Shown here: positions 4,163 through 31,810 of the stretch, piece after piece
Position numbering within the stretch: position 1 is the stretch's first letter
Layout of the letters: each line of letters begins with the position of its first letter
Assembly: GCA_046050355.1 (NCBI GenBank)
Contig: JBJOPW010000003.1
Span: forward strand, 11,922-75,921
Direction: 5' to 3'
From: Candidatus Parcubacteria bacterium
Lineage (GTDB): Bacteria; Patescibacteriota; Minisyncoccia; Phycocordibacterales; UBA918
Length of the DNA stretch: 64,000 bases
The notes under the pieces: generated by a model
The model's input: the letters and a program-made list of their open reading frames with translations, nothing else
Databases searched by the model: none
Told to the model about the DNA's origin: nothing
Made by a program: the position numbers and the translations under genes

Positions 4163-4184
4163 GTACTAACTCTCGCACAACAAA

Positions 4185-4207
4185 CCCCCGCGCCACAGGC
4201 GCGGGGG
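4185..4207. terminator. bidirectional rho-independent terminator between rpsA and pth
   Basis: cccccgcgcc-acag-gcgcggggg with A-run upstream and T-run downstream. Confidence 0.7.
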
Positions 4208-4215
4208 TTTGTTTG

Positions 4216-9759: not shown

Positions 9760-11016
9760 ATGGAACAGATTAAAACAGACGTTGAGTCATTCGCCCGCAT
9801 TCGTGTTGTGGGTGTTGGTGGTTCAGGCAACAACGCCGTGAACTACATGGTCGGCGCCAAAGTTAAAGGTGTTGAATTTATCGCAATCAATAGTGATGCC
9901 CAAGATCTCCATCACTCACTGGCGAAACGTAAGATCCATGTCGGCAAGAATCTCACTCGTGGTCTTGGTGCTGGCGGTAACCCAGACATGGGCCGACGTG
10001 CCGCTGAAGAAACACGCGAAGAAATTGCCAATGCCATCAAGGGTTCAGATATGATCTTTGTCACCTGTGGTATGGGAGGAGGAACCGGTACCGGTGCCGC
10101 TCCAGTCGTGGCGAAGATTGCTCGTGAGAGTGGTGCGCTCACCGTGGGTGTCGTCACGAAGCCCTTCCTCTTTGAAGGGCAGGAACGAATGCGCCTCGCT
10201 CTCCAAGGCATCGAGGAATTGAAAAAAGAAGTCGACGCACTCATCACCATTCCAAACGACCGCCTCCTTGCCATTGTTGACAAAGAGACTACTGTCAAAA
10301 GCGCCTTTGAGCAGTGCGACAATGTCCTCAAGCAAGCCGTTGAAGGTATCTCTGACCTTATCACTATGCCTGGTATCATTAACGTCGACTTCGCTGATAT
10401 TCGTAGCGTCATGGAGAACGCCGGTTCAGCCCTCATGGGTGTCGGCGTCTCAGCTGGCGAAAAGCGCGCTGAGGAAGCCGCCCGCGCCGCTATCAACTCA
10501 CCACTCCTTGAAGTATCAATCACCGGGGCGAAGGGTGTCCTCTTTGCGATTGCCGGTGGTGACGACCTTGGTATGCTCGAAATCCAGGACTCAGCACGAG
10601 TGATTACCGAATCAATTGATCCACACGCCAAGGTTATCTTTGGTGCGATCAAGGACGACAAACTCAAAAAGAACGAGGTGAAGGTGACGGTAATTGCGAC
10701 CGGCTTCCCTGAAGAATCAAGTGGACACCACAGCGCACCAATTGCTCGTCGTGCCCCCATAGCTGAACCATCACCAATTATGGCCGAAACCGAGGAGCCA
10801 GTAGCTGAACCAGTTCGTGGCCGTATCTTCAATTCACTCACGAACCCACGCCGCCAAGAAGTCGACGAAGCACCAGCACCAAAGGTAGACATGATGCCAG
10901 AGCCAAAGCCTGAACTCCCTCGCCGTGAACCCAAGCCAGTCGATCCCGTCGACGAAGACGATGAGGACGATTGGGGCGCCGTGCCGGCCTTCTTGCGTCG
11001 TTCAAAACTTAAATAA
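9760..11016 (+). CDS. ftsZ: cell division GTPase FtsZ
   Basis: [10 protein letters not shown] and [11 protein letters not shown] tubulin signature, disordered acidic C-tail. Confidence 0.95.
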
Positions 11017-11387
11017 AGTTTTGACGAGCAAGGGCCGGCGCGGCGCGGCGGACCGATGTGAGTCGCCCCTTCCTAGGGCGACGAAGCAGGCCGCCGGGGT
11101 CGGAAGTACTTAGATTTTTATGAACGTAGTGAAATAAAAAGCTTAGTAACTTCTGACCTGTTCCTGCATTTCTCCGAAGGAGCCGAACCAGCAAGCCGCA
11201 GCGATACGAACCGCTCCTTCCTAGAGCGGTGAGGCAGCGAGCCGGGTGAGAAATGGGACGGGACCCATTTCGCAAGACCTTGCCAGCTATCTTTTGAGTG
11301 AAAGCGAAAAAGTAGCGACAAGGTGTACTGAACCTGTAAGGTTCGACGGCATTCTCATAATTTAATTTCAAAACCCGATTCATGACA
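11017..11387 (+). other. structured non-coding region downstream of ftsZ (candidate sRNA or long 3' UTR) with two paralogous hairpins
   Basis: Two ~85-nt imperfect tandem units. Hairpins 11062-11082 and 11210-11230 have different, mutually compensatory stems but an identical loop, CUUCCUA. A further hairpin lies at 11251-11271. No ORF. Ends at terminator 11388-11420. Confidence 0.3.
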
Positions 11388-12657: not shown

Positions 12658-12706
12658 CAGTGACTTGAAAACAAAAACGCACTCCCGTCGGGAGTGCGTT
12701 TTTGTT

Positions 12707-13435
12707 TTAGGTAGTATAGTCCTGGAAAGTGGCCGGTGTCACCACCCGTGGGAAGTGTTCACGGTATTCCGGATTGGCCTCGAGCCAGCGACTAATATCC
12801 GTCCACCTGAGGCCATGAAAGCCAAAGGAGTCCACGTAGTGATAATGATCCTTTGAACGCCCTTCATAGGAGAAGGCTTCGGCCACTGGCACCGGTGCAA
12901 AGCGGATCCCTTTCGCTTCAAGCTTCGCCTTTTCAGTATAACATTGTGCCCAGTCTTCTGGTTCGGTCAAGGTGAAGTCGCCAGCGGCAGCGAGCTTTGC
13001 GGTAAGGGCGAGGAGCTTCTGGCTCCGCCACGAGAAGCCACCGTTACCGACCACGAGCTGCCCAATCGATTCGACCGGTACGTCGTGTCGCTCGACCGTC
13101 CACTGCCCGATCTCAATCGGTGCGCCGATATAGTCGTACTCACGCCAGCTATCCTGCCAGGCACTGGGATTGAGAACAAAACCATCATATTGAATAATCA
13201 ATGCATATGGTGTATCGATATATTTATGAAGCTCGGTCAAGCAAAACTGCGAGTAAGCTTCAATGGAGAGAATGGGCTTAATAGCCACTTGTCGTTCGTC
13301 ACTAGTAGGAATAGAGGTGAGAAGCTTCACTGCTCCAAACTCTACTTCTTTCGTTGATATATCAGCTGCTAAAGCGAGTCGCTTGAAATTAAGACAATCA
13401 ATACCAACAAGGGTCACGTCCGACAATTCAATCAT
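12707..13435 (-). CDS. hypothetical protein (DUF5672-like; possible nucleotide-sugar transferase-like fold)
   Basis: 243-aa ORF from MIELSDVTLVGID. The longer annotated start (13561) crosses a terminator hairpin, so the ATG at 13433-13435 is preferred. GNGGFSWRS motif. Confidence 0.4.
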   Translation of the reverse strand: MIELSDVTLVGIDCLNFKRLALAADISTKEVEFGAVKLLTSIPTSDERQVAIKPILSIEAYSQFCLTELHKYIDTPYALIIQYDGFVLNPSAWQDSWREYDYIGAPIEIGQWTVERHDVPVESIGQLVVGNGGFSWRSQKLLALTAKLAAAGDFTLTEPEDWAQCYTEKAKLEAKGIRFAPVPVAEAFSYEGRSKDHYHYVDSFGFHGLRWTDISRWLEANPEYREHFPRVVTPATFQDYTT

Positions 13436-23498: not shown

Positions 23499-23545
23499 CA
23501 CAAAACAGTGCGGGGTTCCCTACGGGAACCCCGCACTGTTTTGTG
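23499..23545. terminator. perfect 22-bp stem hairpin (bidirectional terminator-like)
   Basis: cacaaaacagtgcggggttccc-tac-gggaaccccgcactgttttgtg. Confidence 0.7.
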
Positions 23546-23550
23546 TAGGC

Positions 23551-23591
23551 CGCTCCTCTTGACCTAGGGTACCCCTAGGTCAAGAGGAGCG
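23551..23591. repeat. second perfect palindrome (19-bp stem, tac loop) adjacent to the first
   Basis: cgctcctcttgacctaggg-tac-ccctaggtcaagaggagcg. Confidence 0.6.
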
Positions 23592-24052: not shown

Positions 24053-26269
24053 ATGGAAAACAATACAAATAACATGAATGGGGCTTCTCAAAGCCCAATT
24101 TCTAACGGGACGAGTCAAGGTCAAAGTACCACCCCAGCCCTCTTTACCAGTCCCTATAATCCGGCCGACCACGAAGCCCGTATCTATGAGCTATGGGAGC
24201 AGTCAGGTTATTTCAATCCAGACAATTTGCCCGGGGACCGGACTGAGCCTTTTGCTGTGGTGATGCCACCACCAAACGCCAATGCCTCACTCCATGCTGG
24301 CCATGCCCTGTTTGTGACCATTGAAGACATCATGATTCGCTACGAGCGTATGAGGGGTAAGAAGGCTGTGTGGTTCCCAGGCTCAGACCATGCTGGTTTT
24401 GAGACCCAAGTGGTGTACGAAAAGCATCTTGAGAAAGAGGGTCGTTCACGTTTCCAGATGACTCGCGAAGAACTGTATGGTGAAATCTACGATTTCGTAC
24501 AAAAGAATAAAAGCATGATGCAGAACCAGGTACGCTCACTTGGTGCATCCTGCGACTGGTCACGCCAGCTTTTTACCCTTGATGATCGCGTGAAGCGCAT
24601 CGTCTATGAGACCTTCAAACAGCTCGAAACCGACGAACTCCTCTATCGTGGTGCTCGTTCGAGTAACTGGTGCCCGAAGCATCAGACCTCATTCTCGAAT
24701 CTTGAAGTAGAACACGAGGAACGAACCGAACCATTTTATTACTTTCAATACGGACCATTTGTGATTGGTACGGCTCGTCCGGAGACCAAGTTCGGTGACA
24801 AGTATGTCGTCATGCACCCAGATGATGCGCGGTACGCACAGTACACCCACGGACAACAAATCGAGATGGAGTGGATCAATGGGCCGATTACCGCCACTGT
24901 CATCAAAGACGAAGCCGGTGACCCGGAGCTCGGTACCGGTGTAATGACTATCACCCCCTGGCATTCTGGTATCGACTTTGAAATCGCGAAGCGTCACAAT
25001 CTAGACTACGAACAGATCATCGACTGGCGCGGGAAGCTCCTCCCGATTGCCGGTGAGTTCGCTGGCCAGGATATTCGTGAAGCCCGTAAGTTGATTGTCG
25101 AGAAGCTCAAAGAAAAGGGACTCCTTGTCAAAATTGATGAAGGGTACCACCACGCGGTCCCCTGCTGCTACAAGTGTGGTCGTGAGATTGAACCACAGAT
25201 TAAAGAGCAGTGGTTCGTCAACATGAAGCCACTGGCTGCCAAAGCTATTGAAGCTCTTGATGCTGGTCGCTACAGCTTCGTCACAGAACGTGATGAGCGC
25301 GTGTTCCGTCATTGGCTCTCAAATATCGAAGACTGGCCAATCGCCCGCCAGATTGCCTGGGGTATTCCCATTCCTGCCAAGGTCTGTACCGTATGTCATC
25401 ACGGCATGGTCGACCTCGACAATACCATCACTGCCTGCACCAAGTGCGGTGGTACAGTCGAGCAGGAACAAGATACCTTTGATACTTGGTTCTCCTCTGG
25501 CCAGTGGCCACTGTGTGTGACCGACTTTGGTGGTGAGGGTAGCGACTTCAAAACTTTCTACCCCACCGCAGTGATGGAAACGGGCAAAGACATAGTCTTC
25601 TTTTGGGTGGCGCGGATGGTGATGCTCGGTCTCTACCGCACCGGTGAAGTACCATTTAAGAAAATCTACCTCCACGGTATGGTGCGGGACAAGCACGGCA
25701 AAAAGATGAGTAAGAGTAAAGGCAACGTGATAGCACCGAGCGAGATTCAAGAAAAGTACGGGACTGATGCACTCCGCATGGGTCTCATGATGAACAATGT
25801 GCCCGGGACCGATATGAACCTCGATCCAGACAAGGTCAATGCGCACAAGAAGTTCGCCAACAAACTCTGGAACATCACCCGCTTTGTGCTTGATAACACC
25901 GCCGACTACACACCACAGCCACCGCATACCGCCGCTGACCAAGCCTTCGAGGACGCAAATCTCCACCCGATGGTTGCGGAGATTAACAAAGACATGGCCG
26001 CTGACCGTTTTGACCTCGCTGCCGAAAAGATCTACCACTTCGTTTGGGACCACTTCGCGAGTCAGGTAATCGAAGAGAGTAAGATACTTCTCGCTGGTTC
26101 ACCCGCAGAACGTGCATCCCGCCAGCGCATGCTCACCCATTACCTCGTAACGTCACTCAAACTCCTCCACCCATTTATGCCGTTTGTGACCGAGGCCATC
26201 TGGCAGGAGCTACCAGCACACATGAAAGATGCAGAGATACTGATGATTGCATCTTGGCCAAAGGCATAA
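24053..26269 (+). CDS. valS: valyl-tRNA synthetase (short form lacking C-terminal coiled-coil)
   Basis: HIGH-class motif (PPPNANASLHAGHA) and KMSKS; editing-domain and Zn-knuckle (CCYKCG) regions. 738 aa. Confidence 0.8.
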   Translation: MENNTNNMNGASQSPISNGTSQGQSTTPALFTSPYNPADHEARIYELWEQSGYFNPDNLPGDRTEPFAVVMPPPNANASLHAGHALFVTIEDIMIRYERMRGKKAVWFPGSDHAGFETQVVYEKHLEKEGRSRFQMTREELYGEIYDFVQKNKSMMQNQVRSLGASCDWSRQLFTLDDRVKRIVYETFKQLETDELLYRGARSSNWCPKHQTSFSNLEVEHEERTEPFYYFQYGPFVIGTARPETKFGDKYVVMHPDDARYAQYTHGQQIEMEWINGPITATVIKDEAGDPELGTGVMTITPWHSGIDFEIAKRHNLDYEQIIDWRGKLLPIAGEFAGQDIREARKLIVEKLKEKGLLVKIDEGYHHAVPCCYKCGREIEPQIKEQWFVNMKPLAAKAIEALDAGRYSFVTERDERVFRHWLSNIEDWPIARQIAWGIPIPAKVCTVCHHGMVDLDNTITACTKCGGTVEQEQDTFDTWFSSGQWPLCVTDFGGEGSDFKTFYPTAVMETGKDIVFFWVARMVMLGLYRTGEVPFKKIYLHGMVRDKHGKKMSKSKGNVIAPSEIQEKYGTDALRMGLMMNNVPGTDMNLDPDKVNAHKKFANKLWNITRFVLDNTADYTPQPPHTAADQAFEDANLHPMVAEINKDMAADRFDLAAEKIYHFVWDHFASQVIEESKILLAGSPAERASRQRMLTHYLVTSLKLLHPFMPFVTEAIWQELPAHMKDAEILMIASWPKA

Positions 26270-26384
26270 CGTGGTACGATCGACTATTTTGGAAATCGCC
26301 TCAAATGAGGCGATTTCCTTTTCCCCGTATCGGGCTTTCTCGCCACTATTCGCAAGACTACGCCTGCTACAATGTTAAGACACT

Positions 26385-27083
26385 ATGGACATTACTCCAG
26401 CAGCCTTCGCTATCGCTGCCGTCTCAGGACTGGTACCGGCGCTATTTTGGCTTTGGTTCTGGCTTCGCGAAGATAAGGTAAAACCTGAACCAATCCTCCT
26501 TATCGTCATCACCTTTATTGCCGGCATGGCAGTAGTACCACTTGCCCTTCCACTCCAGAAGCTTGCTATTGAATTATATATTGGCACCAGTCTGGTGGTA
26601 GCGTGGGTCATTATTGAAGAAACCCTCAAATATGCGCTCGCTGTCCTCATTATCCTTTGGAACCGAGCCGTTGATGAGCCGATCGATATGATTATCTACA
26701 TGATCACCATCGCGCTTGGGTTTGCGGCGCTTGAAAATACCCTCTTTCTTCTCTCACCAGTCTCGGGTGGCGATTACATGAATTCGACCCTCACCGGTTC
26801 CTTCCGCTTTTTAGGCGCATCACTTCTCCATATCCTCGCCTCGGGGACTGTCGGAGTCTTCCTCGCTTTTGCCTTTTATAAGAGCAAACTCACACAAATC
26901 CTCTTTGGCATGCTGGGGTTATGCCTGGCTATTGTATTGCATGCTCTCTTTAACTTTTTTATAATTGATGCAAGTGGAGAAACTATCCTCGGTGTGTTTC
27001 TCTTCGTCTGGATAGGAATTATTATCCTGTTCTTCTTATTCGAAAAAGTCAAAGCTACCGAACGGAAGCAATTAGTACCTTAG
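26385..27083 (+). CDS. prsW: PrsW-family intramembrane metalloprotease
   Basis: EETLKY (EExxK), FAALENTLF (FxxxE), HILASG (HxxxxxxG) motifs in a polytopic membrane protein. Confidence 0.65.
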   Translation: MDITPAAFAIAAVSGLVPALFWLWFWLREDKVKPEPILLIVITFIAGMAVVPLALPLQKLAIELYIGTSLVVAWVIIEETLKYALAVLIILWNRAVDEPIDMIIYMITIALGFAALENTLFLLSPVSGGDYMNSTLTGSFRFLGASLLHILASGTVGVFLAFAFYKSKLTQILFGMLGLCLAIVLHALFNFFIIDASGETILGVFLFVWIGIIILFFLFEKVKATERKQLVP

Positions 27084-27093
27084 TTCCCTCTTT

Positions 27094-27609
27094 ATGAAAA
27101 AACCATCATTCCTCGACCGCCTCACTGGCAATGTACAACACGAAGACTACGATCGTGTTTTAGCTGACGACCACCATTTTGGCGACGACGAGGCTGAAGC
27201 AGTGGATGAATACGGGGAAGACGAAGACACCTGGCAAGACGGCAACACCCACGATCATACCCCCCAAGAAGGCGAACTACCGGTAGATATGTACCAAACA
27301 GCTGACGCTATTGTGATTCGTGCCTTGGTAGCAGGTGTCAGTCCAAACGATCTTGATATCGCCATCACGCGCGATATGGTCACTATTAAAGGTATGCGAG
27401 AAGAATACCAAGAATCATCAGACGACAACTACTTCCACCGCGAGCTCTTCTGGGGTTCATTCTCGCGGACCCTTCTCCTTCCTGAAGAAGTTGTTATCGA
27501 TGAAGCAGATGCCCAAGAAAAGCACGGCCTCCTTGAAATCCGTTTGCCAAAGCTTGATAAAAATCGCAGTACACAGCTGAGGGTTAAATCACAAGTTCAT
27601 AAGGCATAA
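27094..27609 (+). CDS. Hsp20/alpha-crystallin family small heat-shock protein
   Basis: Alpha-crystallin domain pattern (VD.Y.T.D...I.A.V.GV...D..I......V.I.G.R) and C-terminal LLEIRLPK. Confidence 0.8.
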   Translation: MKKPSFLDRLTGNVQHEDYDRVLADDHHFGDDEAEAVDEYGEDEDTWQDGNTHDHTPQEGELPVDMYQTADAIVIRALVAGVSPNDLDIAITRDMVTIKGMREEYQESSDDNYFHRELFWGSFSRTLLLPEEVVIDEADAQEKHGLLEIRLPKLDKNRSTQLRVKSQVHKA

Positions 27610-27610
27610 G

Positions 27611-27639
27611 AAAAGGCGGTCCCACGGGACCGCCTTTTT
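27611..27639. terminator. bidirectional terminator
   Basis: aaaaggcggtccc-acg-ggaccgcctttt. Confidence 0.75.
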
Positions 27640-27644
27640 CATTT

Positions 27645-27950
27645 TCACCAGCCATCGCGCGCCGCAAGATACTCCTTGCAGAACGACATTTGCTGCGAAG
27701 TCGTGAGCGGAATGTAATGCTGACGGCAACCGTAGTTCACCTCCGCATGCTCTTCATCATGATACGAAATGATGAGTTGCTTTTCCGTCACGATCGTCGT
27801 GCATGGCTGGAGACGAAACATTGTCGCCCAGTCGCGAATGATTTGTCGCGCGACCTGAAACTCCGCCACCGGCTGGAGCAATCGCTCGAGAGTCAGACAT
27901 CGAGAATCAGTACTCATCTGCAAAGAACCATCCATCTTGCTTTCCTCCAT
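27645..27950 (-). CDS. hypothetical Cys-containing small protein
   Basis: 101-aa ORF bounded by terminators. No family recognised. Confidence 0.35.
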   Translation of the reverse strand: MEESKMDGSLQMSTDSRCLTLERLLQPVAEFQVARQIIRDWATMFRLQPCTTIVTEKQLIISYHDEEHAEVNYGCRQHYIPLTTSQQMSFCKEYLAARDGW

Positions 27951-28004
27951 CTGTTGGGCACATACCCTGTTTGAACATTTCCGAGCCTCGTCATTTCACA
28001 ACCG

Positions 28005-28032
28005 AAAATCCGCCTCGGACGGCGGATTTTGA
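28005..28032. terminator. bidirectional hairpin terminator
   Basis: aaaatccgcc-tcggac-ggcggatttt. Confidence 0.6.
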
Positions 28033-28182
28033 ATGTCATCGGAGGAGATGCTCAAAAGCTACCGTCTGGTGCGGATAGTAGATACACAGGATGAGGAGAA
28101 ACTACTCCAGGTGGCGATGTGGTGGGTGAGCTTCATAGTGGTTTTATGATACTCCTTCAAATATTATTTGTCTAGATACTAC

Positions 28183-28509
28183 TCACAGCCCCAGTACTAC
28201 AGCAACTGTCTGGTCAACTTTTGATTGCACTTCCGACTCTAAACGACCAAGCTGTCCTAATACAATTTTTCGATCGAGGGTCGCAATTTTGTCACAGATT
28301 ATGTATGAAGCAATTTTAATCCCATTTTGTTGTGATGGCGTGATGGGTACTACAGCTACAGCTGGCGATTTATGTTTTGAGGAAATGAAGACGACAATAA
28401 CATCACTACCCTTAGCCTGCTTTGATAATACTAACGCCGGTCTCACTTTCTGTCCTGAAAGGTCGGTAAACGGAAACGGAATAAGAACAATATCACCACG
28501 CTTAGGCAT
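28183..28509 (-). CDS. mazF: MazF/PemK-family endoribonuclease toxin
   Basis: MPKRGDIVLIPFPFTDLSGQKVRPALVLS ... ICDKIATLD.K matches the PemK/MazF signature. Confidence 0.85.
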   Translation of the reverse strand: MPKRGDIVLIPFPFTDLSGQKVRPALVLSKQAKGSDVIVVFISSKHKSPAVAVVPITPSQQNGIKIASYIICDKIATLDRKIVLGQLGRLESEVQSKVDQTVAVVLGL

Positions 28510-28753
28510 ATTTTTGTTTAATATCAGCCAGAGTATATGTATCTGGTTCGTCGTTCAAAAAATCAAAACTGTTCGAGTAGGCATTTATATTCGTGATATC
28601 ACTAATATCTGCACGATACTGGGTTGGAAATTTAATAAGCACTGCTTCAGGTTTATCATGGCGCCCAATCACAAAATTCGCACCCTCAGTGGCTACGAGG
28701 TCTACCAAATCAGCGATTTTTTTGCGTGCTGTAGTGGTTGAAATGATTTTCAT
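28502..28753 (-). CDS. Phd/YefM-family antitoxin (with C-terminal extension)
   Basis: MKIISTTTARKKIADLV...VIGRHDKPEAVLI matches YefM/Phd. The stop overlaps the mazF start by 8 nt. The annotated longer start (28813) adds 20 aa that are not conserved. Confidence 0.75.
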   Translation of the reverse strand: MKIISTTTARKKIADLVDLVATEGANFVIGRHDKPEAVLIKFPTQYRADISDITNINAYSNSFDFLNDEPDTYTLADIKQKYA

Positions 28754-28861
28754 ATCAATATTGTACATTTTGTACAAAATACTGCAAGTCAAACAAACAT
28801 GTTCAGTAAACACTGCCCAACTCGGATTGTTCCGGCCCTAAAGGGAACCCCGGAACAGTCT

Positions 28862-28880
28862 TTCGAGCCCGCCCCCAAGC
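28862..28880 (+). repeat. copy of tRNA-Phe 3' end (T-loop to acceptor), plus-strand orientation
   Basis: TTCGAGCCCGCCCCCAAGC is the exact reverse complement of 29121-29139 inside the minus-strand tRNA-Phe gene. Confidence 0.7.
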
Positions 28881-29035
28881 TACAAATAGCAACGACCATG
28901 AAACATGCGTTTCGTACAAACGGGCTCGACCCAGAATCGCGGTTATTTATTTCACTGCGTTCATAAACAGACTCGCGTTCTTGGTCGGCTCCTCCTCGTT
29001 TTGCTCGCCCCAGCTCACAAAACATCGTCCGGAGC

Positions 29036-29080
29036 TTCGAGCCCGCCCCGGACGACATACTCATGTCGTCCTCCCAAGCA
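29036..29080 (+). repeat. second copy of tRNA-Phe 3' end, split by a 22-nt hairpin insertion
   Basis: TTCGAGCCCGCCCC-[ggacgacatactcatgtcgtcc]-TCCCAAGCA. Confidence 0.65.
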
Positions 29081-29126
29081 CATATGAAAAAACTCCCAAC
29101 TAGGAGTTTTTTCATATGTGCTTGGG
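29073..29126. repeat. perfect 24-bp-arm palindrome spanning the tRNA-Phe 3' end and its trailer
   Basis: cccaagcacatatgaaaaaactcc-caacta-ggagttttttcatatgtgcttggg. The right arm is part of the tRNA acceptor stem. Confidence 0.7.
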
Positions 29127-29191
29127 GGCGGGCTCGAACCGCCGACCCCTTCCTCTTCAGGGAAATGCTCTACCAACTGAGCTACCCAAGC
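29119..29191 (-). tRNA. tRNA-Phe (anticodon GAA)
   Basis: Minus-strand cloverleaf: acceptor GCTTGGG/CCCAAGC, D-arm GCTC-AGTTGGTA-GAGC, anticodon loop CTGAAGA, T-arm GGCGG-TTCGAGC-CCGCC, discriminator A. Position 37 is G. CCA not encoded. Confidence 0.8.
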
Positions 29192-29235
29192 AGTGAGGCA
29201 CATTGTACCTGAATTTAAGTTTTTTTCAACTTTAA

Positions 29236-29691
29236 TTACTGCCCCTCCCCACTAGGAAATCGAACGCTTTCAACAAGATAAGAAGTCTTCCCTCTCCATG
29301 GCCGAATCCCATATCTTTGCGAATATTTTATCTCTATGATGTCGCCTGTCCTTGCCGCTTCTTCAAGCATAGAAATTAGCAAATAGTTATCGGCACTTTT
29401 CTCATCAATAGAAAAATCCCAACTTTCTACGTATGCACCACTTTGTGTTACCCCAAGACTACCCTCATATGTTTTCCATAGCAAACCTTTATCACTCAAT
29501 TTTACAACCTGTCCTATTCGTATTCCCTCACTATATTCAAAATCATAGGCAACTAAACCAATTGCAATTGGAATGAGGGTCGTAAATAGAATCACTGACA
29601 ACGGTATACATAATACCAACAACCATGTCCACATTGTAGATTTTGATTTTCTACGTTTCTTTTTTTCACTTATAACTTCTGGAGTTTCCAT
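29236..29691 (-). CDS. hypothetical membrane-anchored protein, AT-rich, upstream of tRNA-Phe
   Basis: 151-aa ORF. Basic N-terminus plus TM then a soluble domain. Low GC. Confidence 0.45.
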   Translation of the reverse strand: METPEVISEKKKRRKSKSTMWTWLLVLCIPLSVILFTTLIPIAIGLVAYDFEYSEGIRIGQVVKLSDKGLLWKTYEGSLGVTQSGAYVESWDFSIDEKSADNYLLISMLEEAARTGDIIEIKYSQRYGIRPWRGKTSYLVESVRFPSGEGQ

Positions 29692-29699
29692 AATTATTT

Positions 29700-29999
29700 T
29701 TATTGGCCCATATACGTCTCAATCAGGCTTTCTATGACGGTTGTGGGAACAGTAACACCATTTACCTCAATACCTGTCCCGGTACCCGTTGTGACGCCAA
29801 TAAAGGCATTGTACAAGTAGTAATAGGCAAGCAGTGGAATACCGAGAAGTATCGTGTACCAAATCACCTTAAAGATGAAGCGGCGGCGCTCACGCCGTTC
29901 TTGGCGAATCAAGAGCTCATTGTTCTGTCGCACCAGTTCTTGATTCTCCCGCAACAGCTTAATAATAAGCTCGTGTTGATCAGTTGGCATTGGGTCCAT
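29700..29999 (-). CDS. hypothetical small membrane protein with N-terminal coiled-coil
   Basis: 99-aa ORF. ELVRQNNELLIRQERRERRR then one TM. AT-rich. Confidence 0.4.
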   Translation of the reverse strand: MDPMPTDQHELIIKLLRENQELVRQNNELLIRQERRERRRFIFKVIWYTILLGIPLLAYYYLYNAFIGVTTGTGTGIEVNGVTVPTTVIESLIETYMGQ

Positions 30000-30008
30000 A
30001 TGCTCTCA

Positions 30009-31187
30009 TTATACATCCCTTTGCTGGTGCGCGATGGATTGATGTAGAAAGACAAACGCGAGCATTGCGAGGGTACCGGCGACTAGACCTGAAGCCAAAA
30101 AGGCAGTCTCGAGCGACCAGACGTCAGCTACCCAACCGATAACCGGTGACACAATAGCAAAAAATAATCGTGTGTAGAGTGAGTTTAGAGAAATGACGGT
30201 AGCCCGAATATCAGATGGTGTTTGTTTGTGAAGGAAGTCGAGCATAATTGGATGCAAAATTCCACGAAGTAACCACGCGAGAGACATCACCGCCACCGCG
30301 GCCAGACCAATCCCAAAACTAAGGAGTATAAATACCATTCCCACTACCCCACCGCTGAGGCCAAACAATAGTGAAAAGCCAAGACGTCGCTGCAAACGAT
30401 GCGCAATATACGAACCAAATGCAGTTATTGCATTATAAGAAGCCCAGAGCACTCCAAATAACACCAAAGGAACACCTATCTCTTGCCAATATGGTTGTGC
30501 CATCCAGACGAGCAATAAACCCGACGAAAATAATATGCCCGTAAAGATATTCATATGAAGAATAGTTTTGTTCTCATACAGCGCATACCGGAGTGCTCCC
30601 AATAAATCTTTCCGTTGACGATGTCCAATCTCCATCTTTGGTTCTTTAAGCAAAAAAGTAAGCGGTATCGAACAAAGCATCACAAAAAACTGTATATATA
30701 AAACCACCGTAACTGAGTACCAGCTAGCCAAGAGACCCCCTAAGATTGCTGCTGAAGCTTCTGAGAGCCGTGCAATACTGAGCATGCGACCTTCAATCTT
30801 GGTGTGTTTATCAGTAGCGTTGTATTGCTTAAGGGTGTCATACAACAAAGCTGAGTCGGCTCCAGATATAAACGATATCGAAACAGCTAACAATAACTCT
30901 GCGGTAGCAAAACCCCAAAAGTCACCCGATAACGCATACGCGAGGTACCCGAGACTGCCGAATACCATACCAATGACTAGCGAATATTTGCGCCCGAAAC
31001 GATCAGCGAAATAACCCGATGGCACTTCCAGTGCAACGATAGCTACCGAAAAAAGTACTTGGAGCAAGAAGACATCTTGCATCGATAATCCCACATCGAG
31101 CCAATAGAGCGTAATGATGGGAATCATCAATAAAAAGGCTCGAATTGCTCGAACTATGAGAAGAAGTGTAATTTGTCGTTGCATCAA
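30009..31187 (-). CDS. MFS transporter
   Basis: 12-TM profile; GYFADRFGRKYSL matches MFS motif A (G.a.DrfGrr). Confidence 0.8.
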   Translation of the reverse strand: MMQRQITLLLIVRAIRAFLLMIPIITLYWLDVGLSMQDVFLLQVLFSVAIVALEVPSGYFADRFGRKYSLVIGMVFGSLGYLAYALSGDFWGFATAELLLAVSISFISGADSALLYDTLKQYNATDKHTKIEGRMLSIARLSEASAAILGGLLASWYSVTVVLYIQFFVMLCSIPLTFLLKEPKMEIGHRQRKDLLGALRYALYENKTILHMNIFTGILFSSGLLLVWMAQPYWQEIGVPLVLFGVLWASYNAITAFGSYIAHRLQRRLGFSLLFGLSGGVVGMVFILLSFGIGLAAVAVMSLAWLLRGILHPIMLDFLHKQTPSDIRATVISLNSLYTRLFFAIVSPVIGWVADVWSLETAFLASGLVAGTLAMLAFVFLHQSIAHQQRDV

Positions 31188-31246
31188 ACAATCGTATCAC
31201 AAACCCTCACTTCCCGACTATTTTTGTGCTACGATACCCCGTACAA

Positions 31247-31318
31247 GCCCCCGTAGCACAACGGATAGTGCAGTCCCGTCCTAAGGGAACGATCTGGGTT
31301 CGATTCCTGGCGAGGGCA
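31247..31318 (+). tRNA. tRNA-Arg (anticodon CCU), with one C-A acceptor mismatch and one anticodon-stem mismatch
   Basis: GCCCCCG-TA-GCAC-AACGGATA-GTGC-A-GTCCC-GTCCTAA-GGGAA-CGAT-CTGGG-TTCGATT-CCTGG-CGAGGGC-A, followed by terminator 31332-31368. Confidence 0.65.
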
Positions 31319-31331
31319 CACAAACGTAAAA

Positions 31332-31368
31332 GAAAAGCACTCTTTATCTAAAGAGTGCTTTTCTTTTA
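31332..31368 (+). terminator. rho-independent terminator after tRNA-Arg
   Basis: aaaagcactcttta-tct-aaagagtgctttt followed by CTTTT. Confidence 0.75.
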
Positions 31369-31523
31369 GTAAGCAATCAGTATTGCTTACGTACACTTGT
31401 GTGAGACGGAACGATGTTTTCGCTATTCCTAATGCCAAAACGAGTGAGTCGGGGTCGAGAACACTTAGTAGTTTAGAAGCGTAGCGAACTAATATACTTA
31501 GTGATTCGTGACTATTGTTAAAC

Positions 31524-31557
31524 AACAAAACCTTTCTGTTAACAGAAAGGTTTTGTT
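31524..31557. terminator. perfect 34-bp palindrome, likely bidirectional terminator downstream of the glutaredoxin gene
   Basis: aacaaaacctttctgtt/aacagaaaggttttgtt. Confidence 0.6.
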
Positions 31558-31573
31558 TATGGTTGCTCAAAAC

Positions 31574-31810
31574 TTACACTCCCAGGAGTTCCTTCACCTT
31601 GGCTTCATCAAATCCCACAATCACATCGTCTTCGATACGAATTACGGGCACACCCATCTGACCGGTCATATCTACCATCTCCTTACGCTTTTCAAGATCA
31701 CTCGCCACGTCGTGTTCAGTAAAGGCGATGTTATGCTCAGCAAAAAAATCCTTGGCCATGTGGCAGTAGTGGCAAACCGGAGTACTATAAATGGTGACAG
31801 TTTTACTCAT
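31574..31810 (-). CDS. glutaredoxin-like protein (NrdH/Grx family)
   Basis: MSKTVTIYSTPVCHYCHMAK: thioredoxin-fold CxxC N-terminus, ~78 aa. The ATG at 31810 is preferred over the annotated 31855. Confidence 0.75.
   Translation of the reverse strand: MSKTVTIYSTPVCHYCHMAKDFFAEHNIAFTEHDVASDLEKRKEMVDMTGQMGVPVIRIEDDVIVGFDEAKVKELLGV

Follow-up and report, generated by a model that had tools for sequence, protein, structure and literature searches.

The window (the whole 64-kb stretch of DNA that was analysed) carries on its minus strand a tRNA-Phe(GAA) gene at 29119–29191 (start 29118/9; ARAGORN; Rfam RF00005, 67.6 bits), preceded on the same strand by a promoter-like site, TTGAAA-16-TACAAT (29202–29229), a pattern match from a consensus scan. 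The CCA end is not encoded and a C directly follows the gene, as in all CPR loci examined. The gene runs into a perfect 54-bp palindrome (29073–29126, both strands) that combines the 3' end and trailer of the tRNA, a terminator, and an inverted copy belonging to a neighboring element, X (see below). The palindrome arms (29073–29096 and 29103–29126; 24+24 nt, 100% complementary) surround a 6-nt centre and fold with energies of −39.6 and −40.8 kcal/mol, one per strand; the right arm includes the tRNA acceptor 3' strand plus A73 and C. At the palindrome core (29087–29112, both strands; AAAAAACTCC/GGAGTTTTTT), a G+C-containing hairpin with a GGAGT/ACTCC stem lies between an A-run and a T-run, which on folding has the form of a predicted bidirectional intrinsic terminator. 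Two sense copies of the tRNA end lie farther along on the plus strand. The first, TTCGAGCCCGCCCCCAAGC (28862–28880), equals tRNA positions 29120–29138 at 19/19 nucleotides, and with up to three mismatches allowed, the 64 kb contain no match besides this copy and the tRNA itself, against an expectation of 0.01. The second is split into the T-loop and T-stem 3' strand (TTCGAGCCCGCCCC, 29036–29049, 14/14), a 22-nt hairpin (29050–29071), and the acceptor 3' strand with A73 and C (TCCCAAGCAC, 29071–29080). All of the features that an earlier note on this DNA had described, including the perfect palindrome reaching into the tRNA acceptor and the hairpin that interrupts the second copy, are present at the coordinates given there and far exceed chance. 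An ORF of 108 aa in the spacer (28789–29115) has no family match in Pfam and starts inside the terminator, and is therefore treated as spurious. Beyond the repeats, adjoining and overlapping minus-strand ORFs (28183–28813) form a type II toxin-antitoxin pair: a Phd/YefM-type antitoxin (28502–28813, as an ORF from a GTG start, with an MKIIS... start at 28753; PF02604, 1.5e-9) and a PemK/MazF-type toxin (28183–28509; PF02452, 1.9e-18).

The tRNA-like fragments belong to an apparently uncatalogued family of hairpin-rich elements of ~170 bases, whose members adjoin tRNA genes tail-to-tail in numerous ultra-small CPR bacteria (Patescibacteria); two decayed copies end in these fragments. On the strand opposite the tRNA, a complete element begins with an antisense copy of the block from the tRNA T-loop to the 3' end, continues with a conserved junction from which two long hairpin arms with co-varying stems extend, and ends in a sense copy of the same block that is usually split by a perfect 9-bp hairpin (hp3); the sense copy is followed by a palindromic bidirectional terminator common to element and tRNA. 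The copy nearest the tRNA in the window is a nearly complete X-type element (28920–29080, plus strand; nhmmer 2e-17; 91% identity to L202 and 92% to L221 by alignment). A leftover of its outer antisense T-loop/T-stem copy, CGGGCTC (28921–28927), pairs in the predicted fold with 29039–29045 as helix P1b, whose pair columns (11–16/135–140) are unchanging across 11 sequences. Arm 1 (P2 and hp1, 28928–28986) folds as a 20-pair hairpin with the loop TTCACTGCGTTC and has compensatory changes in 7 of 22 pairs among relatives, and arm 2 (P3 and hp2, 28987–29036) consists of GGCTCC/GGAGCT enclosing a GTTTTG/CAAAAC hairpin, with compensatory changes in 8 of the 13 pairs of helices 4–5. The sense copy follows, with hp3 (29050–29071; GGACGACAT ACTC ATGTCGTCC, a perfect 9-bp stem with a 4-nt loop) between its T-stem and acceptor parts. 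The acceptor-complement at the 5' end, GCTTGGGGGC in relatives, is replaced by GTACAAAC, and the copy is shown to have lost its outer repeat through a small deletion. The decayed inter-element palindrome before it (28881–28919, both strands; TACAAATAGCAAC...GAAACATGCGTTTCGT), compared with intact versions in L041 and L053, has lost its right arm together with the GCTTGGGGGC of the next element. The second element (28812–28880, plus strand; 90% identity to the 3' part of the complete L055 element and 89% to L024), which the Phd antitoxin ORF abuts, is truncated at its 5' end and by fold keeps only arm 2 (GTTCCGG..CCGGAAC, 28825–28860) and the unsplit 19-nt sense copy (28862–28880). The orientation of the copies had looked anomalous because only the "inverted" ones survive in the window. 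Further members lie elsewhere in the window: one with an A-type interior and a 22-nt hairpin (31369–31390) stands tail-to-tail with tRNA-Arg(CCT) (31247–31319) on the minus strand (31369–31517; nhmmer 6.5e-24) and has the palindrome 31327–31368 in common with it, and two more, with A-type and B-type interiors (11040–11345, minus strand; nhmmer 1.7e-18), lie downstream of and convergent with ftsZ (identified by Pfam), with no tRNA nearby and no Rfam match. In all, 4–5 divergent copies occur in the 64 kb.

Among CPR tRNA-Phe loci of other genomes with enough downstream sequence, 28 of 42 contain an element, always on the strand opposite the tRNA, and 14 of 42 contain none; metagenome contigs add 28 occupied tRNA-Phe loci, for a total of at least 56. 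Occupied loci hold one to three tandem elements, each ~150–190 bp and non-coding. The recurrence of the repeats downstream of tRNA-Phe in relatives would by itself suit a conserved trailer, the reading that the earlier note had named as contrary to its own, but variable DNA and empty sites occur there too. A scan of genomes with the 19-mer gave 67 loci, 46 of which are CPR tRNA-Phe genes, five of these with a second exact copy nearby; among the nhmmer matches listed, the only locus labelled as a non-CPR phylum that shares the 19-mer and has an element is L075 (labelled Azotimanducaceae). Elements are of types X, Y, A, B, and C, with the order differing by locus, copy number ranging from zero to three, and deletions at internal junctions; Y-type copies retain a partial T-arm, CGGCGGTTCGAGCCCG, and L070 has only the palindrome plus CCCAAGCAC. 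Relatives of the element adjoin tRNA-Arg, tRNA-Val, and tRNA-Ser, and a convergent tRNA (Phe, Arg, Val, or Ser) lies downstream of 28 of 30 A-type interiors; a 29th (L061) is on a contig that breaks off within tRNA-Phe. In the copy nearest the tRNA, the interior stops 92–120 nt from the tRNA 3' end. At the hp3 position, at least 17 different stems occur in 22 genome copies, and the 28 metagenome loci have further perfect or near-perfect hairpins. Complete Phe-type copies have terminal inverted repeats in which GCTTGGGGGCGGGCTCG pairs with CGAGCCCGC(hp3)CCCCAAGC; these are degenerate in the X copy of the window. A literature search for a CPR repeat or RNA linked to tRNAs found no description.

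Read on the tRNA strand, an occupied site runs from the tRNA through a new terminator, the element, and a displaced copy of the tRNA 3' end to the old terminator. This order is the footprint of DNA inserted at the tRNA T-loop with the 3' end of the gene restored; integrated DNA is delimited by a regenerated tRNA and a displaced fragment (the Islander principle, PMC4383910). The block from the T-loop to A73 and C forms direct repeats resembling attachment sites, 17–23 bp long at tRNA-Phe in 11 loci (in L056, 23 bp flanking 168 bp) and 44 bp long at tRNA-Ser in L074, where the element ends match tRNA-Ser, not tRNA-Phe, and the repeat runs 25 nt beyond the tRNA end. The terminator after the distal repeat resembles those at empty sites. 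The fragments had been recognized in the earlier note as the T-loop-to-3'-end block used by tyrosine integrases, and this identification stands: the same block bounds the inserts of complete relatives as a direct repeat. In the window, no direct copy of the block within three mismatches occurs in 64 kb, CGGGCTC at 28921–28927 being all that is left, and the copies beside tRNA-Arg and tRNA-Val and after ftsZ are without direct repeats. Among occupied and empty relatives, the best pairs are only ~80% identical, and no clean pair was found.

The tRNA-Phe locus is a recombination hot spot: the number and type of elements vary by genome, the neighboring slot holds differing small gene cassettes, and the tRNA-Phe module is inverted between relatives. 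The closest relatives of the window share hsp20, a conserved block R, the element array, tRNA-Phe, and a gene of 99 aa; Phd/MazF is found among them only in L222. The antitoxin is missing at the same position in L024, L055, L235, and L202, and the slot holds two other genes in L229, HicA/HicB-like genes in L202 (judged from ORFs, not by profile), and nothing in L024, L055, and L235. In these last three genomes the tRNA-Phe module, which occurs in both orientations, is flipped, and between L229 and L235 the flanks are 95% identical while the module has opposite orientations; a search for inverted repeats at the module borders found none. Repeated recombination at the site, as proposed earlier, is borne out by all three kinds of variation. 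Inversion is supported for the module; the inverted copies themselves are a built-in part of the element, and the toxin-antitoxin pair adjoins the repeats as described but sits outside rather than between them.

The best explanation of these observations, offered tentatively, is that the elements are miniature recombination cassettes at the tRNA T-loop, with a structured RNA family as a serious rival. Such cassettes would be non-autonomous, and would be gained, lost, duplicated, and truncated through recombination at the repeated tRNA-end block, by a recombinase acting in trans; each would give the tRNA a fresh terminator, and the nested inverted and direct repeats would turn the site into a hot spot. 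More speculatively, a cassette may enter as a folded single strand, its palindrome re-creating the tRNA 3' end as its own attachment site. Several observations weigh against cassettes. No recombinase or integrase was found among the 39 window ORFs scanned with Pfam, the search that the earlier note had suggested, nor a recombinase gene beside any inspected locus, and the analysis turned up no autonomous or free parent element; IMG/VR does not contain the 19-mer, and BLAST of phage and plasmid collections gave no match. (A 14-mer interior motif gave unspecific matches only in IMG/VR.) Copies within one genome are divergent and thus show no sign of recent transposition, direct repeats are lacking at the Arg, Val, and ftsZ copies and could elsewhere have arisen by tandem duplication, and standard att recombination leaves the inverted copy and the hairpin unexplained. 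Finally, pairing in the arms is preserved by numerous compensatory changes; this argues for selection on structure and would not be seen in a passive scar.

A family of immobile structured small RNA genes is a possible though rather unlikely alternative to cassettes. The RNAs would be transcribed toward the tRNA and stop at the shared terminator, or would be a product of tRNA read-through on the other strand; a long terminal helix built by the tRNA-like ends would imitate the acceptor and T-arm (part of the T-arm being retained even in Y-type copies) and may recruit proteins that process or bind tRNA. The conserved fold is a three-way junction with a side hairpin, in which the core is conserved and the distal stems are variable. 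Paired cells make up 94.5% of the X-type alignment, compared with 85% in shuffles, and double changes affect 21 of 50 pairs where 10.4 are expected, and no shuffle out of 500 equals either value; compensatory changes are likewise present in hp3 and in 7 of the 9 recovered pairs of the A type. Also in favour of RNAs are conserved loop motifs (TTCGCTTCGCTC, CTAGGAAG), an ACTAAGT motif that is repeated on both arms, the fixed position and orientation relative to tRNAs, and the persistence of the family in tiny, dense genomes that carry the labels of several CPR classes. An RNA made from one strand usually tolerates G:U pairs and not A:C, but the stems show no strand asymmetry (77 G:T versus 98 A:C equivalents), with only 1 G:T among 194 positions in hp3. 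The consensus scan found no promoter-like site ahead of the plus-strand elements of the window, many copies start no more than ~10 nt from the upstream terminator, one third of loci are empty, and the extension of the tRNA-Ser direct repeat 25 nt past the tRNA end is not required by RNA pairing. Nor do the elements match any Rfam family: with Rfam 15 covariance models at permissive thresholds, applied to the locus, the whole window, the ftsZ-downstream copies, block R, and eight complete foreign loci, only true tRNAs were recovered, with the elements unmatched at E up to 10 in the window and up to 1 in the eight loci. Some known RNA classes were set aside: matches to microRNA, RNAI, and CRISPR-DR models were sub-threshold and reflect hairpins only; ARAGORN finds no tmRNA or permuted tRNA, the acceptor is without G3:U70, and there is no tag reading frame; the group I introns of Patescibacteria tRNAs are irrelevant, being located in the anticodon loop and much larger (PMC13011429); and TIGR-Tas arrays differ in periodicity and require an associated protein. 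The composite reading, that CPR bacteria have either an undescribed system of T-loop-inserting miniature cassettes or a new class of structured RNAs mimicking the acceptor and T-arm, and that in either case the repeats cause the tRNA module to flip and toxin-antitoxin and other small gene cassettes to be captured, is doubtful when taken as a whole.

Long perfect palindromes at gene ends are the norm in this genome, with ~22 sites of the same A-run/stem/T-run architecture in 64 kb compared with 0.7 expected; what distinguishes the present one is that its arms run into the tRNA. An explanation built on this background, which we consider unlikely, is that the elements are REP/BIME-like clusters of terminator or insulator palindromes that would stop convergent transcription both ways, the tRNA-end copies being passive products of template-switch extension of a terminator palindrome into the invariant tRNA arm. 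Consistent with this, every element lies between convergent units with such terminators on its flanks, the stems are perfect on both strands, as suits a bidirectional function, and the length of tRNA and trailer copied varies from 2–5 nt at tRNA-Arg and tRNA-Val to 19–23 nt at tRNA-Phe; the reduced locus of L070 also fits. Left unexplained are the conservation of a non-palindromic interior across distant genomes and four tRNA species, the outer direct repeat, and the constancy of the tRNA position at which the hairpin splits one arm.

The earlier note itself had read the repeats as scars of integration and excision, in which case a prophage or island integrated in tRNA-Phe by its own tyrosine integrase would have been deleted and inverted, with the toxin-antitoxin pair as surviving cargo. 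The copied block is the usual att core of the T-loop class, the toxin-antitoxin pair adjoins it, and inverted sites derived from tRNAs allow an integrase to flip the DNA between them (Thermococcus Int-pTN3, PMC5495485); nevertheless, this account is highly improbable, and comparison with other genomes largely refutes it. The "scars" recur, with one and the same internal structure, in at least 56 loci, the inverted copies being a built-in part of a ~170-bp structured element in dozens of genomes; the hairpin is a conserved feature with co-varying stems; the window has no direct copy of the block within three mismatches, no integrase among the 39 ORFs scanned, and no similarity to phages or plasmids; and the toxin-antitoxin pair, outside the repeats, is replaced by unrelated cassettes in relatives. 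The chance of a palindrome-caused assembly artefact is negligible: although fold-back contigs can arise from palindromes, L208 having the look of one, and Logan unitigs are interrupted within the tRNA, the locus is base-for-base identical in a JGI contig and two Logan assemblies from other samples (four independent assemblies in all), which excludes a one-off assembly error, and the same architecture recurs in dozens of genomes from different projects.

The genomes of CPR bacteria (Patescibacteria) are tiny and dense and are thought to have little mobile DNA or non-coding RNA, yet two thirds of the sampled tRNA-Phe loci hold 150–500 bp of conserved and highly structured non-coding DNA that is partly copied from the tRNA. 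If the elements are cassettes, they would constitute a minimal form of tRNA-targeted recombination that needs no linked integrase, and would account for a hot spot that swaps toxin-antitoxin and other small genes and flips the tRNA module; if they are RNAs, they would represent a new tRNA-mimicking family in an uncultivated radiation. On the practical side, short-read assemblies break or fold back at palindromes centred on tRNAs, and tools that find islands by their displaced tRNA fragments would be misled by the inverted ones.

Several known systems share part of this organization. REP/BIME sequences likewise cluster as hairpins where the 3' ends of convergent genes meet, and plausibly act in termination or insulation, but the units described here are composite (three different arms plus tRNA-derived ends), lack a GTAG/CGTC head, and are far fewer. 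MITEs, Correia elements, BOX, ERIC, and RUP are similar in length (100–200 bp), in having 17–21-nt terminal inverted repeats and strong predicted hairpins, and in their intergenic location and modular subtypes; in contrast to MITEs, the terminal repeats here, present in complete Phe-type copies, are copies of the neighboring tRNA 3' end and not transposase sites, no target duplication of 2–10 bp is seen, the copies are few and divergent rather than many and near-identical, and they keep a fixed position and orientation with respect to tRNA genes. In Thermococcales, integrase-driven inversions also occur at inverted tRNA-derived repeats where close relatives differ by inversion (PMC5495485); here, the inverted segment is a module of 350–420 bp that contains the tRNA and has borders without an inverted repeat, and no integrase is known. 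As with islands and prophages that tyrosine integrases insert in tRNA genes (PMC4383910), the gene-attached copy keeps the tRNA intact, the displaced copy delimits the insert distally, and successive inserts lie in tandem at one tRNA; the differences are that the insert is just ~170 bp, non-coding, and without an integrase, that its conserved interior is folded, that an additional block copy, inverted and divided by a hairpin, is present, and that the tRNA-Arg and tRNA-Val members are without a direct repeat. Integron attC sites and the integration of CTX-phi as a folded single strand (PMC4792948, PMC3442271) offer a further parallel, with tandem cassettes at one fixed site, an imperfect palindrome at the end of each unit, with the recombination core on its arms, and an extra-helical feature on one arm, which corresponds here to hp3. 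Unlike in those systems, the target is the tRNA T-loop rather than attI or dif, the cassettes are without ORFs, and the palindrome arms are tRNA-derived, with no RYYYAAC/GTTRRRY cores, no IntI, and no identified Xer partner. The arrangement of core, loop, and inverted core beside the target is also what a folded single-stranded attP would leave; single-strand recombination is here purely conjectural.

The window comes from a MAG labelled Candidatus Parcubacteria, and its tRNA-Phe(GAA) gene lies on the minus strand (29118/9–29191; ARAGORN and Rfam). A perfect palindrome with 24-nt arms (29073–29096 and 29103–29126) and a 6-nt centre was located by the repeat finder, as were two inverted copies of the T-loop-to-acceptor block: one with 19/19 identity (28862–28880), the other identical over its first 14 nt (29036–29049), then interrupted by a 22-nt insert that forms a perfect 9-bp hairpin (29050–29071), and resuming beyond it as TCCCAAGCAC. 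At up to three mismatches, this 19-mer occurs in the 64 kb at these two sites alone (0.01 expected). The inverted tRNA-Phe fragments and palindrome described in the earlier note are confirmed in position by ARAGORN, Rfam, the repeat finder and the 19-mer scan.

An exact 19-mer scan of 185,579 species genomes returned 67 loci, 46 of which are tRNA-Phe genes of the Candidate Phyla Radiation (CPR); in five loci, a second exact copy lies within 50–280 bp. Inspection of these loci revealed a recurrent, hairpin-rich element on the strand opposite tRNA-Phe. It starts with (GT)GCTTGGGGGCGGGCT(CGA/GAT/CGG), which is antisense to the tRNA 3′ end, continues through a long hairpin arm, a short conserved linker and a second hairpin arm to TTCGAGCCCGC, a 9-bp hairpin (hp3) and CTCCCCAAGCAC, and ends in a palindromic terminator abutting the tRNA; several interior types are distinguished (X, Y, A, B, and C). 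According to profile searches, 28 of 42 tRNA-Phe loci have one or more elements downstream, without exception on the strand opposite the tRNA; in the 14 empty loci, hsp20 is followed by one terminator and then by tRNA-Phe. The same searches gave no element matches at 19-mer-sharing loci labelled as non-CPR phyla, with the exception of L075, a locus labelled Azotimanducaceae, perhaps through mislabelling or misbinning. When metagenomes were scanned for the split copy, 38 loci were recovered (28 judged real elements, 10 chance matches). The elements match no family in Rfam 15, and no published description of them was found in the literature searched, although one outside the searchable library is possible. 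A tmRNA was also considered; none is present.

Two copies remain at the window's tRNA-Phe. The X-type element (28920–29080) is 91–92% identical to copies at two related loci, L202 and L221; in the first ten columns of their alignment (A3) it reads TCGTACAAAC where relatives have (G)CTTGGGGGC, and it has therefore lost its outer tRNA-end copy, CGGGCTC (28921–28927) being the sole remnant. A second element (28812–28880), 89–90% identical to the last ~70 nt of the complete element of L055 and L024, lacks its 5′ two thirds, and the antitoxin gene begins at the truncation point. The inter-element palindrome (28881–28919) is decayed, with intact counterparts in L041 and L053. The inverted orientation that had seemed anomalous is thus explained, because complete elements carry both antisense and sense copies, of which the window kept only the sense ones.

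Direct repeats on the tRNA strand measure 17–23 bp in eleven loci and 13–14 bp in three more; in L056, for example, the 23-bp block GGTTCGAGCCCGCCCCCAAGCAC at the tRNA end recurs 168 bp downstream, where it is followed by the hsp20 terminator. The repeated block spans the T-loop to A73 plus C, where conservation across all CPR tRNA-Phe loci ends. Insertion of DNA into a tRNA gene, with the gene's 3′ end regenerated by the insert, produces such an arrangement (PMC4383910). Our tentative reading, held with somewhat less than even confidence, is that the elements are miniature cassettes that recombine at the T-loop of the tRNA and provide the terminator as well.

The surroundings were compared by BLAST of window 26000–31600 against all loci and by a further alignment (A4). 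The closest relatives have the order valS, PrsW, hsp20, block R, element array, tRNA-Phe, a 99-aa gene and tRNA-Arg. A slot separating block R from the element array holds a different small cassette, or nothing, in each relative, most of these cassettes lying on the tRNA strand. The slot of the window holds the Phd/MazF toxin–antitoxin pair (28183–28813; PhdYefM and PemK-MazF families verified by Pfam), with a counterpart in L222 only among the compared loci; the pair is a neighbour of the repeats, not cargo enclosed by them. By reading of the ORFs, HicA/HicB-like genes were assigned to the L202 slot (471–930), and a 217-aa gene and a 179-aa GrpB-like gene to that of L229 (1064–2300); the translated sequence suggests a NUDIX-like gene in L059 and L079, and the slot is vacant in L024, L055, and L235. 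The 151-aa gene (29236–29691) is lineage-specific as well. A 101-aa ORF (27645–27950, minus) between hsp20 and block R has no Pfam match, and since the corresponding stretch aligns poorly in relatives (A4), its slot is variable too. Block R itself, a conserved non-coding stretch of ~190 nt (27985–28175, minus), is 82–91% identical in at least 12 relatives whose adjoining ORFs differ; with a promoter-like TAGACA-17-TATCAT (28174–28146), a terminator hairpin (28005–28030), a fold z-score of −2.7 and no Rfam family match, it is a candidate small RNA of a new type.

In L024, L055, and L235, the module of promoter, tRNA-Phe, palindrome and elements is reversed within matching flanks. The flanks of L229 are 95% identical to those of L235, yet the two loci differ by inversion of a 347-bp module and by a 1.5-kb indel; no inverted repeats were found at the borders of the invertible module. 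For inversions driven by an integrase between sites derived from tRNAs, Thermococcales offer a precedent (PMC5495485).

Relatives of the element occur at other tRNAs. With an iterated A-type interior profile, 30 copies were detected. Downstream of 28 of them lies a tRNA in convergent orientation [Phe, Arg(CCT), Val(GAC) or Ser(CGA)]; for one more, in L061, the contig terminates within tRNA-Phe. In the copy nearest the tRNA, the interior stops 92–120 nt from the tRNA 3′ end. In the window, an element (31369–31517, minus) that has its own perfect 22-nt hairpin (31369–31390) lies tail-to-tail with tRNA-Arg(CCT) (31247–31319), the two having in common a palindrome with 19-bp arms (31327–31368); a tRNA-Arg-derived direct repeat is absent there. 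At tRNA-Arg and tRNA-Val, the sequence copied by the elements is limited to the trailer and the final 2–5 nt of the tRNA. At the tRNA-Ser of L074, both element ends copy tRNA-Ser instead of tRNA-Phe, and the element is flanked by a direct repeat of 44 bp made up of a terminator arm and the tRNA 3′ end. The only tRNA-independent site seen is downstream of ftsZ (9760–11016), where two tandem elements with A- and B-type interiors (11040–11345, minus), convergent with ftsZ, fill a gap with no nearby tRNA. A different kind of tRNA-fragment array is found in a more distant member of the Parcubacteria (L005, GCA_027490575.1, 12925–13127), where two tandem partial copies of the tRNA-Phe 5′ end (ATATGCCGA..GTCTCAGTTGGTAGAGCAA) precede tRNA-Phe.

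Single-sequence folding predicts one design for types X, Y, and A: a terminal helix from the two tRNA-derived ends, the side hairpin hp3 branching off, and two arms at the inner junction. RNAalifold on eleven X-type copies gave 50 pairs, with 94.5% of cells paired (85% in shuffles, 28–49% with partners slid) and compensatory double changes in 21 pairs (10.4 in shuffles); none of 500 shuffles reached the observed value. Among 22 genome copies, 17 or more different hp3 stems occur, comprising 193 Watson–Crick pairs and one G:T in 194 positions (recounted with three spurious matches left out); metagenome copies, read by eye, add perfect or near-perfect stems of other sequence. This covariation counts in favour of a structured RNA gene family, a reading that we consider possible but doubtful, and no σ70-like site was found upstream of the plus-strand copies. 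When both strands of 37 elements were folded, 77 G:U pairs were counted on one strand versus 98 on the other, and in 31 elements the fold of the tRNA strand was the more stable. The predicted folds lack strand asymmetry, unlike an RNA made from one strand; the test is compatible with function at either the DNA or the RNA level, because every terminator palindrome in this genome is also perfect (~22 sites versus 0.7 expected). On the tRNA strand, loops of the arm-1 hairpin (hp1) read C-GNA-G, as GCGAAGC, ACGAAGT, GCGTAGC or ACGCAGT (e.g., window 28951–28962 and 11113–11141), a motif that forms exceptionally stable DNA mini-hairpins.

We think it unlikely that the elements are a passive cluster of terminator or insulator palindromes, a reading to be weighed against the tRNA-derived direct repeats. 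Any tRNA-Phe transcript that reads through the central terminator would, by prediction, sequester the acceptor and T arms of the tRNA in a ~40-bp duplex (−99.8 kcal/mol), and this terminator is therefore probably important to tRNA maturation. The ~22 long perfect gene-end palindromes across the window (arms 9–24 bp; the expected 0.7 comes from shuffling) usually carry an A-run and a T-run (e.g., 4179–4213, 12668–12708, 23499–23545, 23551–23591, and 31524–31557); two neighbouring ones occupy the 700-bp gap upstream of valS. Very improbable are scars of a classical prophage or island: no phage or plasmid similarity was found, nor any recombinase among the 39 window ORFs scanned. The earlier view of the fragments as att-type blocks at a recombination-prone site with inversions is retained, and that of remnants of a large integrase-bearing element is given up. 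An assembly artefact has next to no probability, the tRNA-Phe locus being identical in one JGI contig and two Logan assemblies of other samples. Assembly does fragment here, as the tRNA is conserved and recurs in inverted form; in the same strain, short-read unitigs (L001 and L003) stop within tRNA-Phe, at window 29164–29171. A perfect fold-back contig without the tRNA (L208, JACCDR011363728.1, 3121–6854), in which valS, PrsW, hsp20, and an X element are followed by a palindrome and the same genes in reverse, is probably an artefact nucleated by the tRNA/element palindrome.

If the elements are recombination cassettes, a circular form made up of the block, the interior, the inverted block carrying hp3, and the terminator could recombine with the tRNA at the block, which would give exactly the observed order. 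Alternatively, the same product would come from a folded single strand in which the palindrome restores the duplex tRNA end; the two routes are indistinguishable in the present data. Insertion of a folded single strand would resemble that of CTX-φ or integron attC (PMC3442271, PMC4792948).
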